Source: Euryarchaeota archaeon UBA229
GTDB taxonomy: Archaea > Thermoplasmatota > Poseidoniia > Poseidoniales > Poseidoniaceae
DNA length: 45,829 bases
Reading direction: 5' to 3'
Assembly: GCA_002505355.1 (NCBI GenBank)
Contig: DAUW01000076.1
Span: 50,551-96,379 of the forward strand
Part shown: piece after piece, positions 12,880 through 19,385 of the stretch
How positions within the stretch are numbered: the stretch's first letter is position 1
How the letters are laid out: each line of letters opens with the position of its first letter
Program-made: the position numbers and the translations under genes
Notes under the pieces: generated by a model
Databases searched by the model: none
What the model was told of the DNA's origin: nothing
Seen by the model: only the letters and a program-made list of their open reading frames with translations

Positions 12880-12966
12880 GCGGCAGTCGCATAGCCTGGC
12901 CATTGCGCCGGATTGCTAATCCGGTGGTGTCTCACCTCGGGAGTTCGAATCTCCCCTGCCGCGCCA
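12880..12966 (+). tRNA. tRNA-Ser (anticodon GCU), class II with long variable arm, 3' CCA encoded
   Basis: Acceptor GCGGCAG/CTGCCGC. Anticodon stem CCGGA/TCCGG with loop TTGCTAA (GCT at 12915-12917). Variable arm GGTG-TCT-CACC. T arm GGGAG-TTCGAAT-CTCCC. Discriminator G, then CCA (12964-12966). No intron. Confidence 0.9.
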
Positions 12967-15933
12967 TCATTCAAAGAAGTCGTCAAACTCATCAGCCATC
13001 GATTCAGCAGCTAACCGACGATTTCTCGCAGCAACAACTCTTCGCAGCCTCTTGAGGCGTTTTGCGATGAATGCCAGCATGATTATGCCGATGCACAAGG
13101 TTGAGAGTGTAACTATCCCAGCTGTCATGAATTCTTGCTGCTCAAGACTGTCACTGAAGTTTCCTAGCCATTCGCTCCCTAATGGTGGCTCAGGTTCAGG
13201 TTCAGGTTCGGGGATGACGTGCTGATTGTATGACCACCAGTCATATTCAATGTACACTTTTTCTACATTTGCTGATGGATAGATTACCACCGTGCGCTCA
13301 TTGCCATACTCATCTGTTGGCGTTAGAATGTAGTAAAATACCTTCATTGGCCTGATTCGATTATCTTCCATCCCAGTAACTGTATACTGGAAACTATCTC
13401 CTGCAGTGTAGGTCATGTCGCTTAAGATCGGCTGAATCAGGGATAAATCCATACCGTTGGGATTTTGTTCGACTCGATAAAGATCCCAGGTTTCGTTTGC
13501 TTCGCCTTGGGGCCAGGTCCAAGAGATTGTGACCTGATAACACATATTCCAATCTTTTAGGATGGCATAACAATCCGTATCATTGGTAAACAGTGAATTG
13601 CTTTGCATGTCTACAATAGATGTTGAGGGAGGGGTAGAATCACCACATATATATGCAGACGTACCGTTTTCCATAGAGACATTTGCCAAGTGGTTGAATG
13701 TATTACCCGTTCTATCTACTGGTATTATGGCGTATGATGAACAGTAACCGTCGGGAACTGTTAGCATATCCTGCCAGCTGGTCTCGTTCAAGGGAACAAA
13801 CTGTCTAAAGGAATCAGCAACTAAGTCATTCCACATCAATTGATTATAGTTTTCCTGAGGTGATTGGAATATGGTGCCACCAAAGTCGGGTACTACTCTT
13901 TGGTGAATGTTCCATCCTAGAATGTAATCACTCTCAACGTCGCCATAAGGGTCCCAATTAAGTTCAAAGTTTCCAGCCGAGATTAAATCCACCGTAAAAT
14001 TTCGAGCCTCTATGTCGGGCTCGCCAATTTCTCCGATTACTAGAATGGTAGTCGGTTCATACAAACGAGCAAACATAACTGTTTGATTTTTGTATCCATA
14101 GTGTTCACTGTTGAAATACTCCCAACTTTGGTCATCAAAGGAGTTCAATTTTCTAAACTCTACCGATGTGTAGGGGACTCCCTCAGGCAATGCGTGATAC
14201 AGGTTTAATTCGACATCAAGCCAATTCTGCCCGTCAAATATAGAATCATTATTTGTTGTATCAATAAGATCAAACTGATATAGCATCAACGGTATATTGC
14301 CTCCACCTATGTTGTAGTCCTGTCTGACCATTGGTAGCATTGATTCATGAGTAATCTCTACTGTGTTTGATGGTGAGGTTGCTGATGCCGTGTAGAAAGG
14401 GGCGTTGTTAATGCTAATCTCAGAATAAACCAAGATACTGAAATAAATAATTTCACTATTGCCAATAATATCAGTGGTAATTAGTTTGAAAGTGTGGCTA
14501 CCTAGGCCATAATCCGCCGTGTTAATATCAATCTGATGACCATAGTCTACGTTGATTATACCAGAGTACCACCATGAATAGTTTACCGGGCTCGCCGAGA
14601 AAGGGTTTACATTGGCCGTAACAGTAATTGTCTCTTCATCAGTGTACCATTCCTTCTCGTTCGATATGGTAATTGAGGATGCTAATTGTGCGACAATCAC
14701 GTTAGCATCTTCCTCGATTGTGTTGTCAAGGGTGTAAGAATCATAGTTGTTATCGATCAAGTTGGGCAGCACGGCTTGCATGGCGATGTCATTACCATGA
14801 ACAGGCATGTCGAACACGCAGGTACGCTGTTGGTTAGGTGCTAGCTCCGTAATCTCACAGGTTTGTAGTATTGGTTGTCCATTACTTTTTGAGATTGTCA
14901 GTTCTAAGTCAAAATCAACAGCAGTGGCATTCCCATTATTGCTGATGATTACTGAGACCATATCAAAACCGAATAGGTAACTCTGTTCAGACGGGTTGTG
15001 GCTTGGGAACATATTATTTATTGATAAGTCAAGTTCAGTGTCAATATATATGGTTATTTCATTCAGGTTATTGTCATCTTTTAAGTCATGATACGGTGCG
15101 CCAGTGGAATCAAATAGACCGTAAACTAATGTGTATACTCCATCTTGATTGTACTCAAACGTTGGTAACCCCATCTGGAACGATTTATAGAATGAAAATT
15201 TTGGGAAATTTTCGGTGAATTCGTAATTTTCGCTCAACATAGCAGATTTATTTTCGTTCCATAGTTGCCACCCAATAGAAGCGTTCAGTTGACAAGTTGC
15301 ACACAAGTTTGCAAAAGCTGAAAAAGTCATGTTATACTGTGTGTCTCTGGATAGTAAATCATTGCCAGCGTAGTTGGCTAGGTTAGGTAGACCTGACACA
15401 ATATCGTCATTGGTCTCAATCTTGAAATCGGTATACTCTAGGGTAGAATTTATTTTGAAATTTAAGATATCGTCAGTTGGATTCATATCCATCTCGTCAA
15501 ACTGATAAATTACGGTAATAGTCTCATTTATCCCATTTGGATAAAATCCGTTAGTTGAAGTGAAATTGTTGCTTGCGCCGGGATTAATTGGTGGAATGAG
15601 AAATGTACCATCATCGATTCTTTGCGAGATGCATACATTGGTAACTTGTTCTCCAAGACAAACATACCAAGACATTGTTCTTGGGTCTGATGCAGTAGAG
15701 TCTGAGTTGGTCAGTTCAACAGTAAAGTAGGTTGGCTCATAAGCAGGAATGTAGTCATATTCAGTTGGTGTCGAGCCTATTATTGACAGATTGCCTTGAG
15801 TAGATGCTTCTGCATTATCAACTACACTGATGCTTGCGAGTGTAGAAAAGAGCATCAGAAAAACAACGAAAACGCAGGAAAACCTTTGATTCCCCAATTG
15901 CTTTGACGCCACACTCATATGGTTCGCTAACAA
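12967..15933 (-). CDS. Large cell-surface protein (signal peptide, sequon-rich ectodomain, PE-repeat stalk, C-terminal TM anchor); possible S-layer or surface glycoprotein
   Basis: N-terminal hydrophobic signal (FSCVFVVFLMLFSTLASISVV). More than 15 N-x-S/T sequons. PEPEPEPEPP linker. TM helix AGIVTLSTLCIGIIMLAFIA followed by KRLKRLRR and an acidic cytoplasmic tail. I recognise no enzymatic motif. Confidence 0.6.
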   Translation of the reverse strand: MLANHMSVASKQLGNQRFSCVFVVFLMLFSTLASISVVDNAEASTQGNLSIIGSTPTEYDYIPAYEPTYFTVELTNSDSTASDPRTMSWYVCLGEQVTNVCISQRIDDGTFLIPPINPGASNNFTSTNGFYPNGINETITVIYQFDEMDMNPTDDILNFKINSTLEYTDFKIETNDDIVSGLPNLANYAGNDLLSRDTQYNMTFSAFANLCATCQLNASIGWQLWNENKSAMLSENYEFTENFPKFSFYKSFQMGLPTFEYNQDGVYTLVYGLFDSTGAPYHDLKDDNNLNEITIYIDTELDLSINNMFPSHNPSEQSYLFGFDMVSVIISNNGNATAVDFDLELTISKSNGQPILQTCEITELAPNQQRTCVFDMPVHGNDIAMQAVLPNLIDNNYDSYTLDNTIEEDANVIVAQLASSITISNEKEWYTDEETITVTANVNPFSASPVNYSWWYSGIINVDYGHQIDINTADYGLGSHTFKLITTDIIGNSEIIYFSILVYSEISINNAPFYTASATSPSNTVEITHESMLPMVRQDYNIGGGNIPLMLYQFDLIDTTNNDSIFDGQNWLDVELNLYHALPEGVPYTSVEFRKLNSFDDQSWEYFNSEHYGYKNQTVMFARLYEPTTILVIGEIGEPDIEARNFTVDLISAGNFELNWDPYGDVESDYILGWNIHQRVVPDFGGTIFQSPQENYNQLMWNDLVADSFRQFVPLNETSWQDMLTVPDGYCSSYAIIPVDRTGNTFNHLANVSMENGTSAYICGDSTPPSTSIVDMQSNSLFTNDTDCYAILKDWNMCYQVTISWTWPQGEANETWDLYRVEQNPNGMDLSLIQPILSDMTYTAGDSFQYTVTGMEDNRIRPMKVFYYILTPTDEYGNERTVVIYPSANVEKVYIEYDWWSYNQHVIPEPEPEPEPPLGSEWLGNFSDSLEQQEFMTAGIVTLSTLCIGIIMLAFIAKRLKRLRRVVAARNRRLAAESMADEFDDFFE
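13186..13213 (-). repeat. Short tandem hexanucleotide repeat (CAGGTT x3 on the + strand) encoding the PEPEPEPE stalk
   Basis: Read directly: ggctCAGGTTCAGGTTCAGGTTcgggg. The minus-strand translation is IPEPEPEPEPPLG. Confidence 0.8.
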
Positions 15934-16019: not shown

Positions 16020-17126
16020 TTGGCTGGTACTGGGATAATCATGGACCCAGTTCATGTTTCTTTGAACAGAGATGAGAACGCCATGACCGCGGTAATCGAG
16101 TTTCTCTCCGCATTTACCCTTTTTCTCATGATCCTAACGGCCTTCTTATCACTAGCCCAGTTAGAGATGGGTTCGAACGATACCTCCGTTGATAGGCTTG
16201 ACCGAGCTGCGGCACAAGGACTGGACCGTATGACCTCTGACGGCGGTTGGTATGTGCCCGCATTTTCTGATGGCTCCCTTGATTATGCGAATTCAACTTC
16301 TGAATGGCATCTTCAACCGATTACAGAGGTAAATCAGGGAATTGTATTGGCTGGATTAATGGGCGCTAATAATCTAGATTTCGACCGTATTTCTGCGCTT
16401 GGTAACATCACTGAGGATAATTTGGCAAGAGGCCTTGGATTGGGCGAAAAATACAGCCTAAATCTTGAAATTAAAATAACAGAATCAAATATCCCCGAAC
16501 GCCATGGTTTGGTGTTGTTTACCGGTGGTACTGAGCGCGGTACAGCGCAGGCCTCCTCCTCATCGTTCAAAGAAATTCAAGTTGGTGCGGAAAAGTTCCT
16601 GATAATACTCGAAGTTCACAACGGCGGTAGGAAAGCAGATAATTTGCACATCACAGAGATTAGCCCACGCTCAGTATCCGGTGCACCAGAATGGATTGAG
16701 TTGTACAATCCAAACAACTTTGCCATCGACCTCAACGGTTGGAGTTTGTCGCATATTTCTCCGAACCACAACACTAACATTTTGTTGAGAGGAGGGGTAA
16801 TTTCGGGAAATTCTGTTAGTATAATTACTGGAGACCCAAGCAGTCAAGATACTGGTGATGCTGACCACATCATTGACTTAGGTAGCGAAGGTTTCCTTGG
16901 TGTTGGTGAGCTCAATTTACTGGATGATGGGGGTGGTGTAGTCATTCTTTCGTATACCCAATTAAGTGAATATCAACCATTTGAGGTAATGCGTGTGGCA
17001 TGGGGAGGGGATACCGGTTATTTCCTAACGCCCAGCCAGTCATTGGTAAATCTAGGCAACAATTTTCCTCCTACAGAGGATGATTGGGAAGTATCTAGTA
17101 ACCCAAGTCCCGGGATAATCAACTAG
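16020..17126 (+). CDS. Membrane-anchored protein with C-terminal lamin-tail domain (LTD)
   Basis: N-terminal hydrophobic helix AVIEFLSAFTLFLMILTAFLSLA. C-terminal LHITEISPRSVSGAPEWIELYNPNNFAIDLNGWSLSH, which matches the LTD signature (EWIELYNP...DLSGW). TTG start at 16020, alternative ATG at 16041. Confidence 0.65.
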   Translation: MAGTGIIMDPVHVSLNRDENAMTAVIEFLSAFTLFLMILTAFLSLAQLEMGSNDTSVDRLDRAAAQGLDRMTSDGGWYVPAFSDGSLDYANSTSEWHLQPITEVNQGIVLAGLMGANNLDFDRISALGNITEDNLARGLGLGEKYSLNLEIKITESNIPERHGLVLFTGGTERGTAQASSSSFKEIQVGAEKFLIILEVHNGGRKADNLHITEISPRSVSGAPEWIELYNPNNFAIDLNGWSLSHISPNHNTNILLRGGVISGNSVSIITGDPSSQDTGDADHIIDLGSEGFLGVGELNLLDDGGGVVILSYTQLSEYQPFEVMRVAWGGDTGYFLTPSQSLVNLGNNFPPTEDDWEVSSNPSPGIIN

Positions 17127-17133
17127 GCTTAAG

Positions 17134-17982
17134 TTGGTATTTATTTTTCTAGATAATCGGATGCTTCATGAACCTGTGAGTATTAGCACTCATGTTCCCA
17201 TGCAGCCTGCAGGTATGTATTCCCGTGATAGATGTGTGACAGGAGTTCACGGTCTAGACGAAATTTTGCGAGGTGGAATACCATATGGATCAACCGTACT
17301 TGCCGCCGGTACTTGCGGTTCAGGTAAAACAACACTGGGAATGGAATTTCTTGTCAGAGGTGCGAATGCGGGTGAGGCTTGTGCGCACTTTACAGCTACA
17401 GAACCATCAGTAAAATTGTTGGAGAACATCCGACAATTTGCTTTTTTTGATATGAAAATGGTCGACACTGGCTTGATAAATGTATTTGATATGGATGTCT
17501 TATACTCTTGGTTGGGGCTTGAAAAATCAACGTTTGACCTAGATGACGTCCACTCGCTGATAAAGTCGATTGTTGATATTGTCAACACAATCGGTGTGAC
17601 AAGATTAGTGATCGATTCGGTCACAACCTTGTGTTACAAGATTAAGTCAGAACAGTTGATTAGAGATTTTCTTTTCACCTTGGGTAAAAAACTAGCAACA
17701 TTAGGGTGTACAACAATTCTAATTGCGGAAATCACCTCAGCTACTGAAAATGCTCACTGGTCCTCATTTGGAGTAGAAGAGGCAATCTGTGATGGCATCA
17801 TTGTACTTGGCGACATTGAAAGAATGGGTCATTTGTTGCGATTTCTCCAAGTGGTAAAAATGCGCGGGACCTCTCATAGCAGAGCCAAACATGCAATTGA
17901 ATTGACGCCCCTAGGAGTCATGCTAACTCCCATGCTCAAATGGGGCGCAATAAGTGATAATGTCAATCGTTGGGGGTCTTGA
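17134..17982 (+). CDS. KaiC/RadA-like single-domain ATPase (intact Walker A and B)
   Basis: VTGVHGLDEILRGGIPYGSTVLAAGTCGSGKTTLGMEFL (Walker A GSGKT), TRLVIDSVT (Walker B) and LQVVKMRGTSH are typical of KaiC-like proteins. The start is uncertain (TTG 17134; ATG at 17161, 17200 or 17215). Confidence 0.8.
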   Translation: MVFIFLDNRMLHEPVSISTHVPMQPAGMYSRDRCVTGVHGLDEILRGGIPYGSTVLAAGTCGSGKTTLGMEFLVRGANAGEACAHFTATEPSVKLLENIRQFAFFDMKMVDTGLINVFDMDVLYSWLGLEKSTFDLDDVHSLIKSIVDIVNTIGVTRLVIDSVTTLCYKIKSEQLIRDFLFTLGKKLATLGCTTILIAEITSATENAHWSSFGVEEAICDGIIVLGDIERMGHLLRFLQVVKMRGTSHSRAKHAIELTPLGVMLTPMLKWGAISDNVNRWGS

Positions 17983-18568
17983 AGTGTTTGAATTAGACCA
18001 GGGAATTGCCGATCAATTAACCGAAGTATCCCTCAACAGCTCAGTGCAAGTAAGATGCGGCAACTCAAATTCGTTCATGGTAACGGCAAGCACCCTAATT
18101 CCGTTACTGCAGATGTTCGAGATGAAAGGTGTTTACATTTCCGCTAGCCGTGGCGCTGCAGAAGTAATTCAGGCATTTGAGTCGGTCGGCATTGACGTTT
18201 CTCAAATCCAGTTTATTGACTTAGTCTCTTCAGGTATTCTTGGTGGCACCAATATACCATACAACAATGTTCATTTTGTTGATAGTCCGATAATGCTAGA
18301 ATCGATACTACTTCGGACATTGTACATATTGCAAACTAATCAATCAGAAAGAAATTTCGTGTTTGTTGATAGCGTTAACGCACTGGCGATTTACAATGAC
18401 GACAGAATGCTTGCGGAGTACCTCCACACTTTCATCAATACATTCAGGCAACAAGATGTGCTATCGGTAATTCTCAATGTGCCTGACCAGACGCCGCCGT
18501 TAGTTCTGTCAAACCTAGATCTCTACTGTACTGATTTAGTCGACAGAGGTCAAGTTGTCATCCATTAA
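17954..18568 (+). CDS. Degenerate KaiC/RecA-fold-like protein lacking a P-loop
   Basis: Collinear with the KaiC-like layout, but the Walker A position reads VQVRCGNSNSFMV. It retains a Walker-B-like NFVFVDSVNAL. It overlaps the 3' end of the preceding gene (GTG 17954 or ATG 17960 against the stop at 17982). Confidence 0.5.
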   Translation: MIMSIVGGLEVFELDQGIADQLTEVSLNSSVQVRCGNSNSFMVTASTLIPLLQMFEMKGVYISASRGAAEVIQAFESVGIDVSQIQFIDLVSSGILGGTNIPYNNVHFVDSPIMLESILLRTLYILQTNQSERNFVFVDSVNALAIYNDDRMLAEYLHTFINTFRQQDVLSVILNVPDQTPPLVLSNLDLYCTDLVDRGQVVIH

Positions 18569-18581
18569 AGGAGGTAGTCAG

Positions 18582-19385
18582 ATGGCGAAGGAGATTCAGT
18601 TTGAAGCAGAGGATGAGGAGTTCTTTGGTAAAGTTGGCTCATTCGGTGTACCCAAATTCGATAATGAAATGCGCGGTGGTGTGCCAAGAGGATTTACTAT
18701 GATTGCCTTTACCGATACCGGTTCAGGTAGCGAACTGTTCGCCAAGCAGTTTGTTTCACCAGCAGAAGAGGCTGAAAACACCATCTACATCTCAACCAAC
18801 GAGGGTCAAGCAGAGATTGTGCGAATTTTCCAGAAATACGATTGGCCGCTGGACATCAATGTTAGAACAATTGGTGAGGAGTATAACTCGAACGTATTGG
18901 AAAAAGAGTTGCTTGCTAGCAGATATAGGCTAGAAGGCTTCCGTCTTGAGGATATCCAAAGGCTTGCACAAACGCGATTCGTCGATGAAAATAATCAAGA
19001 TTACCTCACTGAAGTAACCAATGAAGTTATGGCTTTAGGGCCGTATTTTAGGGCCGTTGTTGACAGTTTGGATTTCTTCCTGCAAAGAGACGACCCAGCG
19101 CGGGTTGTGGCTATGGTTAGGATGCTGCAAGCTCACGCTCAAATGTACCGTGGTTTACTGTTTCTCACGGTATCCACAGACGGCCTCTCACCTAGCATCA
19201 AGCAAGAATTAGCGTCCATTGCTGACATGGTGTTGTCGTTTCAAGTGCGAACTATCGGAACAGATTTCGAAACCTCGATGATGGTATCAAAATTTAGAAA
19301 TGCGCCAGAAAATTTGAAGATATTAGTGTTTAGAGTGACCCCCGAAGAAGGTATTACCCCGGAAACCGTCGAACGTATTGCTTGA
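18582..19385 (+). CDS. KaiC-like protein with inactivated Walker A
   Basis: FGVPKFDNEMRGGVPRGFTMIAFTDTGSGSELFAKQFV has the KaiC-like N-terminal layout, but GxGKT is replaced by GSGSE. Walker-B-like AVVDSLDFF. AGGAGGT Shine-Dalgarno lies just upstream of ATG 18582. Confidence 0.65.
   Translation: MAKEIQFEAEDEEFFGKVGSFGVPKFDNEMRGGVPRGFTMIAFTDTGSGSELFAKQFVSPAEEAENTIYISTNEGQAEIVRIFQKYDWPLDINVRTIGEEYNSNVLEKELLASRYRLEGFRLEDIQRLAQTRFVDENNQDYLTEVTNEVMALGPYFRAVVDSLDFFLQRDDPARVVAMVRMLQAHAQMYRGLLFLTVSTDGLSPSIKQELASIADMVLSFQVRTIGTDFETSMMVSKFRNAPENLKILVFRVTPEEGITPETVERIA

Follow-up and report, generated by a model that had tools for sequence, protein, structure and literature searches.

A block of four co-directional genes, P1 to P4, lies at positions 16,020 to 19,385 of a 45,829-nucleotide stretch of Euryarchaeota archaeon UBA229 DNA (hereafter the window, which is part of contig C47, GC ~44%) and comes from a marine Group IIa (MGIIa, Poseidoniales) genome that is 75% complete. 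P1 encodes a pilin-like protein with a lamin-tail domain (LTD), P2 an intact KaiC-like ATPase, and P3 and P4 two inactivated KaiC-like paralogs; an earlier note on this DNA had placed all four open reading frames (ORFs) exactly where we find them. Our favoured explanation, to which we give about an even chance, is that P2, P3 and P4 constitute an ancient three-gene KaiC-like operon whose products together make up a regulatory complex of mixed subunits, coupled to a pilus-like surface system. We infer that the three proteins form a hetero-oligomer, that a pilus is the target system, and in which direction the signal would pass between them.

The intact member, P2, matches the Pfam KaiC family (PF06745) at E 9.3e-53 (179.4 bits, cut-off 26.6) and carries a Walker A motif (GTCGSGKTT), one catalytic Glu (TATEPS), a Walker B motif (RLVIDS) and an arginine-finger motif (KMRGTSH). 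GTCGSGKTT and RLVIDS are invariant across 20 P2 orthologs from Poseidoniales, which bears out the earlier reading of an intact GSGKT and Walker B in the first KaiC-like protein, and P2 proteins across the order are 75–92% identical to that of the window. In phmmer comparisons with sequences in the PDB, P2 matches cyanobacterial KaiC at E 3e-40, the best-aligned stretch being the CI domain, whose KLRGTSH falls on the KMRGTSH of P2. In KaiC, this K-x-R segment comprises Lys224 and Arg226, which act in trans on the neighbouring ATP site.

P4 is a clear member of the same fold family (Pfam KaiC, E 3.6e-15, 56.4 bits, with a weak match to DUF7125), and its family profile aligns to that of P2 with a probability of 98.3% (hhalign, E 1.8e-14). 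Its P-loop deviates to GxxGxG(x)(D/E), reading GSGSE here and GAGMD in orthologs; in the residue mapping, GSGSE sits on the GSGKT of P2, such that Lys is exchanged for Ser, Met or Ala and Thr for Glu or Asp. P4 still has a catalytic Glu (ISTNEG), a Walker B Asp (VVDSLDFF) and a K-F-R-N segment lying on the K-M-R-G of P2. The P4-family motif GxxGxGxE-L-F-A-K-Q-F-A recurs in Methanomassiliicoccales, marine Group III (MGIII) and other Thermoplasmata; the deviant P-loop is an alternative motif, old and fixed, and not a sign of decay.

P3 is the more reduced of the two dead paralogs. It reaches the Pfam cut-off for DUF7090 (27.5 bits, cut-off 27) and falls just under that for KaiC (24.4 bits, cut-off 26.6); at the Walker A position it reads CGNSNSF, and the degenerate G(T/N)SN(S/A)F is kept in 20 Poseidoniales orthologs. 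The P-loop is gone and the catalytic Glu is lost (YISASR), the Walker B Asp is kept (FVFVDS), and according to the family alignments the C-terminus falls short of the K-x-R-G segment, leaving no arginine finger. An invariant D-R-G near the C-terminus was considered as an equivalent and rejected, since alignments of P3, P4 and P2 place it one strand earlier. The AlphaFold model of P3 (predicted local distance difference test score, pLDDT, 85.7; predicted template modelling score, pTM, 0.85) finds as its top PDB folds in Foldseek the Sulfolobus acidocaldarius FlaH/ArlH (4yds), PH0284 (2dr3) and KaiC CI, with E from 2e-7 to 1e-6 and template modelling scores of ~0.6. The P3 profile gave no match among PDB sequences. 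Its alignment to the P2 family (hhalign, probability 83.8%, E 8e-6) failed with the 20-sequence alignments and worked once ~60 sequences from other orders had been added. The earlier note had read CGNSNSF in the second KaiC-like protein, whose fold outline it saw as kept, and GSGSE in the third, and had tied its interpretation to both adopting a RecA-like fold; AlphaFold with Foldseek and hhalign place P3 and P4 in the RecA/KaiC fold, and the two motif readings hold.

Both proteins thus belong with the inactivated KaiC-like (iKaiC) type, having a KaiC fold, a disrupted site and a disrupted state that 20 Poseidoniales orthologs keep, as do proteins in other orders. They are under strong constraint, given that their identities across Poseidoniales are 59–83% (P3) and 52–86% (P4), compared with 34–56% for P1 and 21–35% for up988, the large surface protein encoded divergently from P1. 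Relatives of P3 are numerous (597 representatives at E <= 1e-3) and include stand-alone proteins of ~190 amino acids at 25–37% identity as well as proteins in which the P3-like part is fused, C-terminally, with dCache-HAMP, with TPR/SNAP plus CARDB, or with DUF835. In a separate set of 14 control genomes, DUF7090 (P3-like) matches were found in Haloferax volcanii only, and DUF7125 (P4-like) rose above the cut-off in just one genome; haloarchaea may have a comparable pair of dead KaiC-like proteins, as far as these domain matches indicate. NCBIfam gives no curated equivalog assignment for any of P1 to P4.

A mixture of live and dead RecA-fold paralogs could also be read as a Rad55/RadB-like recombination mediator, in which a heteromer with degenerate ATP sites assists RadA. 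Public records (NCBI, JGI) do name P4 'RAD55 family ATPase' or 'KaiC/GvpD/RAD55 family', P2 matches the Sulfolobus RadA paralog SSO2452 at E 1.7e-18, and eukaryotic Rad51-paralog complexes likewise mix live and dead ATPases. P2 is nevertheless far closer to KaiC and carries the KaiC-specific K-x-R-G-T-S-H, the RadB model TIGR02237 reaches 22.6 bits against a cut-off of 172, and no DNA-repair gene is adjacent in ~100 loci, where pilins are found instead; we consider a recombination role very unlikely. The cyanobacterial KaiC proteins being the closest solved relatives of P2, a circadian or hourglass timer in this light-exposed, rhodopsin-bearing planktonic archaeon is another conceivable function, and transcription of Haloferax cirA does track light/dark cycles (PMC10983859). 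We find this barely credible, because P2, P3 and P4 are all single-domain proteins (~200–270 amino acids) and not tandem KaiC, the circadian KaiC models remain far under their cut-offs (TIGR02655, 97.7 versus 546; NF006799, 128 versus 408), and neither the block nor its conserved neighbourhood contains a KaiA or KaiB gene, although no genome-wide KaiB search was made.

Gene order provides further evidence. Among 20 Poseidoniales loci picked for diversity, P1-P2-P3-P4 occur in the same order and on the same strand in every one (one locus is cut off inside P2), so that the synteny in related genomes on which the earlier note had staked its interpretation is present throughout. A P1 homolog was found in 97 of 151 sampled Poseidoniales genomes, one of the 97 being a spurious LTD-only match; every Poseidoniaceae genus has it, as have family f2 and six genera of marine Group IIb (MGIIb), and the small-genome MGIIb genera lack it. 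P3 was absent from all 18 P1-negative genomes tested, meaning that the module is lost as a whole. Homologs of up988 divergently adjoin P1 in 18 of the 20 loci, including MGIIb loci with differing outer flanks; since those flanks (CtaA, UbiE, ATP synthase) are not conserved in MGIIb, the five genes up988 and P1 to P4 move together. A UbiE-type methyltransferase was rejected as a further operon member, its strand and position varying in Poseidoniaceae and the gene being absent from the MGIIb loci.

Beyond Poseidoniales, a scan for P2-P3-(P4) in one genome per species returned 283 loci, of which the best 80 are considered here. These 80 are all from Thermoplasmatota (Thermoplasmata, Methanomassiliicoccales and MGIII); the order P2-P3-P4 is kept in most, and ~15 have no detectable P4. 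A P1 homolog was met only once outside Poseidoniales, upstream of the trio in a metagenome-assembled genome (MAG) of Thermoplasmatales (locus L061). Judged by this distribution of homologs, the trio is much older and wider than its pairing with the LTD protein. The P1 to P4 arrangement is far beyond chance, as it occurs in every Poseidoniales locus examined and the trio in 80 Thermoplasmatota loci.

Two of these neighbourhoods have features of their own. In L061, a 371-amino-acid protein (L061:7491-8606) is encoded between the P3 and P4 orthologs; it matches MetOD1, an archaeal response-regulator output domain, at residues 41–168 and is seemingly duplicated internally. In MGIII, a conserved cytoplasmic protein of 141 amino acids (MAKEEYETPLIDVYNRTHMDALHEDG...) is encoded directly upstream of the trio and co-directionally with it (L082:5710-6135 and 24 other MGIII loci); it belongs to no Pfam family and stands where P1 stands in marine Group II (MGII). 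The same MGIII-type gene and KaiC trio occur in locus L111 (PCCQ01000039.1), labelled 'Candidatus Neomarinimicrobiota bacterium', probably an archaeal contig that entered a bacterial MAG by mis-binning.

The link to pilins emerges from what lies downstream of the trio. Clustering of the flanking ORFs identified a PilA-type pilin, (A/G)VSPVIATILMVAITVVLAAVLY, as the commonest one after the KaiC genes, and in 29 of the 80 loci one to three such pilin genes directly follow the trio on its own strand. Among the loci outside both MGII and MGIII, 38 have at least 3 kb of sequence on their downstream side, and 22 of these carry pilin genes there. In three Methanomassiliicoccales-type loci (L065:9124-13605, L068:6259-10716 and L094:9724-13491), the pilin genes are followed by a protein of 1250–1490 amino acids whose N-terminus, by eye, looks like that of an AglB/STT3 oligosaccharyltransferase.

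The earlier note had pointed out that no archaellum or pilus genes such as ArlI or ArlJ are nearby and had thought an ArlH-type context unlikely. The absence of ArlI/ArlJ-type genes stands, in that the T2SSE-type ATPases of the genome lie on contigs C8, C10 and C141 and none on the contig of the window; read as the lack of a pilus context it is misleading, because the trio is a pilin-associated module across the phylum. Contig C10 (2106-7221) has a type IV pilus-like locus encoding a 521-amino-acid ATPase, two T2SSF/TadC-like proteins (345 and 541 amino acids) and two small proteins with class III signals, one of which has a conserved Glu at +6 (A↓QIHILEMLTLFWLFF, the arrow following position −1). 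This locus carries no KaiC/ArlH-like gene itself. Contig C8 holds a pilus ATPase with a split TadC. The class-C pilus ATPase, to which the C10 enzyme belongs, is present in 97 of the 151 genomes and in the same 15 of 22 genera as P1, the genome-level mismatches being a handful and confined to genera whose other members hold both; the second pilus ATPase class (that of C8) follows the same pattern in a 14-genome sample.

The trio could also have been an accessory of the archaellum, and this was rejected. A true ArlH with an intact GAGKS is encoded at C141:2682-3413 between ArlI and ArlF/G, within the arl operon, and at the level of genera the module and archaellin (PF01917) each occur without the other: archaellin is present without the module in g13 and g20, and the module without archaellin in g3, g4 and g15, including genomes that are 97–99% complete.

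The Poseidoniales partner of the trio would be P1. Its LTD assignment is secure (PF00932, E 6.2e-10, 39.9 bits, cut-off 34.3), and the protein consists of a short acidic leader ending in G/A, a hydrophobic segment beginning (M/L)TAV(I/V)EFLSAF, an alpha/beta domain of ~150 amino acids and a C-terminal LTD beta-sandwich. The AlphaFold model (pLDDT 86) has a 34-residue N-terminal helix, a second helix, the alpha/beta domain at residues 69–194 and the beta-sandwich, which resembles the Ig domains of lamins A/C and B1 (Foldseek, E 1.6e-4 to 8e-4); the fold search with the whole model was dominated by the LTD, and the P1 profile returned only noise from PDB sequences. The most conserved part is the extreme N-terminus, where 22 of 22 sequences fit [DE]x[GA]↓(M/L/V/I)(T/V/I/S)(A/S/R)(V/I)(I/V)E(F/A)(L/V), with G/A at −1 and an invariant Glu. 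This is followed by (S/T)AFxLFLxI; the residues on either side of the Glu are nearly invariant, and the segment is far more conserved than the remaining protein. The leader is polar and in many sequences acidic. The layout is that of a class III signal, namely a short polar leader, G/A at −1 and a hydrophobic domain of ~20 amino acids at the very N-terminus. When a loose form of the motif was run against the 3311 long ORFs of the genome, it retrieved only three PilA-type pilins, P1 and one other ORF, and the start of P1 can be aligned, in register, to the small C10 pilin-like protein (hhalign, probability 42%, E 2.6e-4; De.G↓mTAVIEFLsAF versus de.A↓QVHiLEMlTLF). From these features of its N-terminus, we regard P1 as pilin-like with moderate confidence. 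The membrane-anchored protein of the earlier note thus keeps its LTD and its single N-terminal hydrophobic helix, and the idea of a mere membrane-anchored sensor gives way to an N-terminus resembling a class III prepilin-type signal.

That idea has a worked-out form in which P1 is an uncleaved, signal-anchored sensor whose LTD or alpha/beta ectodomain binds a ligand and signals through the transmembrane helix to a KaiC-like hetero-oligomer. The unusually conserved transmembrane segment with its invariant Glu would suit such a role, as would the predicted ectodomain with an alpha/beta module preceding the LTD and the fusion of P3-family members to dCache-HAMP sensors elsewhere. The cytoplasmic part, however, comprises ~10–15 non-conserved residues and offers little signalling surface, the acidic leader with G/A and a hydrophobic domain fits prepilin-type signals, and the trio occurs without P1 across the phylum. 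A sensor of this kind seems to us unlikely.

Several observations weigh against the pilus-linked complex and against P1 as a pilin-like protein. The N-terminal 198 amino acids of P1 have no Pilin_N, Class_IIIsignal or TadE match in Pfam even at E <= 1 (for comparison, a PilA-type pilin of the same genome matches Pilin_N at 6e-10), and profile comparison of P1 with the PilA-type pilins is insignificant (hhalign, probability 2–5%), so that membership of P1 in Pilin_N is not supported. The match between P1 and the C10 protein spans just 29 columns, largely of hydrophobic segment, and the N-terminal motif scan was designed post hoc, with P1 already known. The C10 locus and the P1 to P4 block are not linked, and the co-occurrence of P1 with the class-C ATPase may reflect as few as one loss event in streamlined MGIIb genera, whose absences may belong to a single clade. 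A prepilin peptidase was not found by PF01478 (Peptidase_A24) in 11 Poseidoniales genomes, the archaellated ones likewise; since archaellated genomes must have one, the model is blind in these genomes, their peptidase being either too divergent for it or of another type. Lastly, the MGIII loci and 16 of the 38 other loci are without an adjacent pilin gene.

This last point also favours the reading of the trio as a generic, ATP-dependent KaiC-type signalling hub without a specific tie to pili, made up of an active KaiC and iKaiC adaptors, for which adjacency to pilins or P1 would be envelope co-regulation or neutral synteny. The variety of unrelated sensor modules to which P3 relatives are fused (dCache-HAMP, TPR, DUF835), the MetOD1 output-domain protein between P3 and P4 in L061, and the fact that the operon never contains a polytopic membrane or pilus-machinery gene are further points in its favour. 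Yet no other non-KaiC neighbour comes near pilins in frequency, they invariably lie immediately downstream on the strand of the trio, in several orders, and in MGII P1 stays with the trio even at loci whose flanks differ. A generic hub is possible, and we rate it as rather unlikely.

Under the pilus-linked explanation that we prefer, P2, P3 and P4 would assemble into a hetero-oligomeric RecA-type ring or stack in which ATP is bound and hydrolysed by P2 alone; the complementary pattern of kept and lost catalytic residues and the phylum-wide gene order fit such an assembly with P2 as its sole hydrolyser. P4, which has lost the P-loop Lys and Thr and can no longer bind ATP in the canonical way, would supply its K-x-R segment in trans to the neighbouring P2 active site, which it could complete because that trans-acting segment is retained. 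P3, the most stripped-down copy, may be the input or adaptor subunit, as the fusions of its relatives to dCache-HAMP, TPR and DUF835 suggest, with relatives placed downstream of membrane sensors. The complex would be functionally coupled to type IV pilin-like surface proteins, with P1 as the partner in Poseidoniales, presumably displaying its alpha/beta domain and lamin-tail (Ig-like) domain outside the cell beside the glycoprotein-like up988. Two modes of coupling can be envisaged. The triad could dock, like ArlH, on the ATPase/TadC platform of the C10 system and gate the assembly of P1-type subunits, or it could act as a CirA-like KaiC switch that reads the membrane pool of the pilin hydrophobic domain and adjusts the expression of surface structures. 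The most specific version is an obligate, asymmetric P2-P3-P4 ring serving as the ArlH-equivalent control of the non-archaellar C10 pilus-like apparatus, which would show a pilin-like LTD subunit beside a giant glycoprotein as a hitherto undescribed organelle for adhesion, contact-sensing or capture of DNA or other polymers; we consider this version unlikely. Elsewhere, lamin-tail domains occur on extracellular nucleases and on proteins of the ComEC type.

The spacing of the four genes (Table 1) is tight, and part of it depends on the choice of start codons. Of the distances given in the earlier note, the P3/P4 gap is exactly 13 nt and does contain an AGGAGGT ahead of ATG 18582. The 7-nt gap between P1 and P2 holds if P2 starts at TTG 17134 and becomes 73 nt from the ortholog-conserved ATG 17200; the overlap of 23–29 nt between P2 and P3 holds if P3 starts at GTG 17954 or ATG 17960, and the ortholog-consistent GTG 17984, which is also possible, would leave a 1-nt gap past the P2 stop. 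Seawater metatranscriptome contigs of at least 99% identity cover each of P1 to P4 at low depth and bridge the P1/P2 junction (17003-17268) and the P2/P3 junction (17763-17990 and 17847-18021); no fragment spans the P3/P4 junction, and the coverage is too thin for quantitative co-expression. These read-through contigs are consistent with a single transcript. The divergent up988 protein combines an N-terminal signal with numerous N-x-S/T sequons, a PEPEPEPEP linker and a C-terminal transmembrane anchor, and shows a weak match to Pfam CARDB that is under the cut-off (E 1.3e-3). A tRNA-Ser(GCU) at window positions 12880-12966, on the opposite strand, ends in exact abutment with the start of the up988 stop codon and has high metatranscriptome coverage.

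Table 1. Coordinates of the P1 to P4 genes and the divergent surface-protein gene in the window.
Feature	Position	Strand	Description	Basis
up988	12967..15933	-	large secreted surface protein, 988 amino acids; divergent from P1	ORF and sequence
P1	16020..17126	+	pilin-like lamin-tail-domain protein; probable start ATG 16041	
P2	17134..17982	+	catalytically intact single-domain KaiC-like ATPase; probable start ATG 17200	
P3	17954..18568	+	inactivated KaiC-like protein, iKaiC type (DUF7090/DUF7504-like), ~195–202 amino acids	
P4	18555..19385	+	inactivated KaiC/ArlH-like protein; start ATG 18582 behind AGGAGGT	

Marine Group II archaea rank with the most abundant microbes that inhabit the surface ocean. 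To our knowledge, none has been cultured, and the ways in which they sense and attach to particles and phytoplankton are almost unstudied. The block described here is among the best-conserved non-housekeeping gene sets of MGII, with P2 at least 75% identical across three families, and it is lost together with the pilus-like locus in the streamlined open-ocean genera. If a mixed ring does control a pilin-like protein, it would be a concrete and testable example of the KaiC-based signalling that has been proposed for archaea. Even as a generic switch only, the module would still be a useful marker separating particle-associated from streamlined MGII lineages.

The closest known counterpart is ArlH (FlaH), which docks on the archaellum ATPase and is, like the trio members, a single-domain KaiC/RecA-fold protein serving a machine related to type IV pili; 4yds is the top fold for P3, and ArlH is the best NCBIfam model for P4. 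The differences are that the single ATP-binding protein of the archaellum is matched here by three paralogs, of which two are dead, that these are not encoded with ATPase or platform genes, and that P4, at 57.9 bits against a cut-off of 215, lies outside the arl operon in a module whose distribution is decoupled from that of archaellin. iKaiC domains are established in archaeal signalling through DUF835, MEDS and related arCOGs (Galperin et al., 2018; PMC5847659), and KaiC-like ATPases have been proposed as signal-transduction hubs (Makarova, Galperin and Koonin, 2017, as quoted in PMC5847659). In those systems, KaiC folds whose ATP sites are destroyed go together with active KaiC-like ATPases and with sensor or output domains, a class that takes in the relatives of P3 and their fusions; the present case differs in that three stand-alone proteins, including two distinct dead types, form a triad of fixed order that is phylum-wide and pilin-linked. 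KaiC-family ATPase genes have also been noted near archaeal type IV pilus loci and proposed to be regulatory (Makarova, Koonin and Albers, 2016; PMC4858521). The main text of that paper mentions neither Thermoplasmata nor inactivated KaiC copies, and the association described here involves pilin genes that stand as orphans, or the pilin-like LTD protein, and not an ATPase/TadC operon. The earlier note knew of no such combination: its general kind had been published in these studies, and the specific pairing of triad and LTD protein was not found in the searchable literature. Nor did that literature yield the fixed ordered triad with two different dead types (which the supplement to the 2017 paper by Makarova and colleagues could list), the linkage of trio and pilins across Thermoplasmatota, or the partnership, specific to MGII, with an LTD protein of pilin-like type and a giant surface protein.

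The only experimental precedent for a functional link between KaiC and pilins is CirA of Haloferax volcanii, a KaiC-like protein that was recovered in suppressors of the impaired motility of a pilin deletion (PMC10983859) and is linked genetically to the signalling that the hydrophobic domain of membrane-resident pilins exerts. CirA is one active protein encoded beside the arl genes and acts on archaellum expression, whereas the MGII module is independent of the archaellum and has three paralogs. Eukaryotic hetero-oligomers of the Rad51-paralog or Elp456 type belong to a different clade of the RecA superfamily, and nothing here points to the DNA or tRNA substrates that they suggest. They are nonetheless assemblies of RecA-fold paralogs in which only some ATP sites are live, as we infer for P2, P3 and P4. 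If so, the triad would exemplify in a prokaryote the RecA-ring design, 'one catalytic plus pseudo-subunit', that is familiar from the Rad51 paralogs of eukaryotes.

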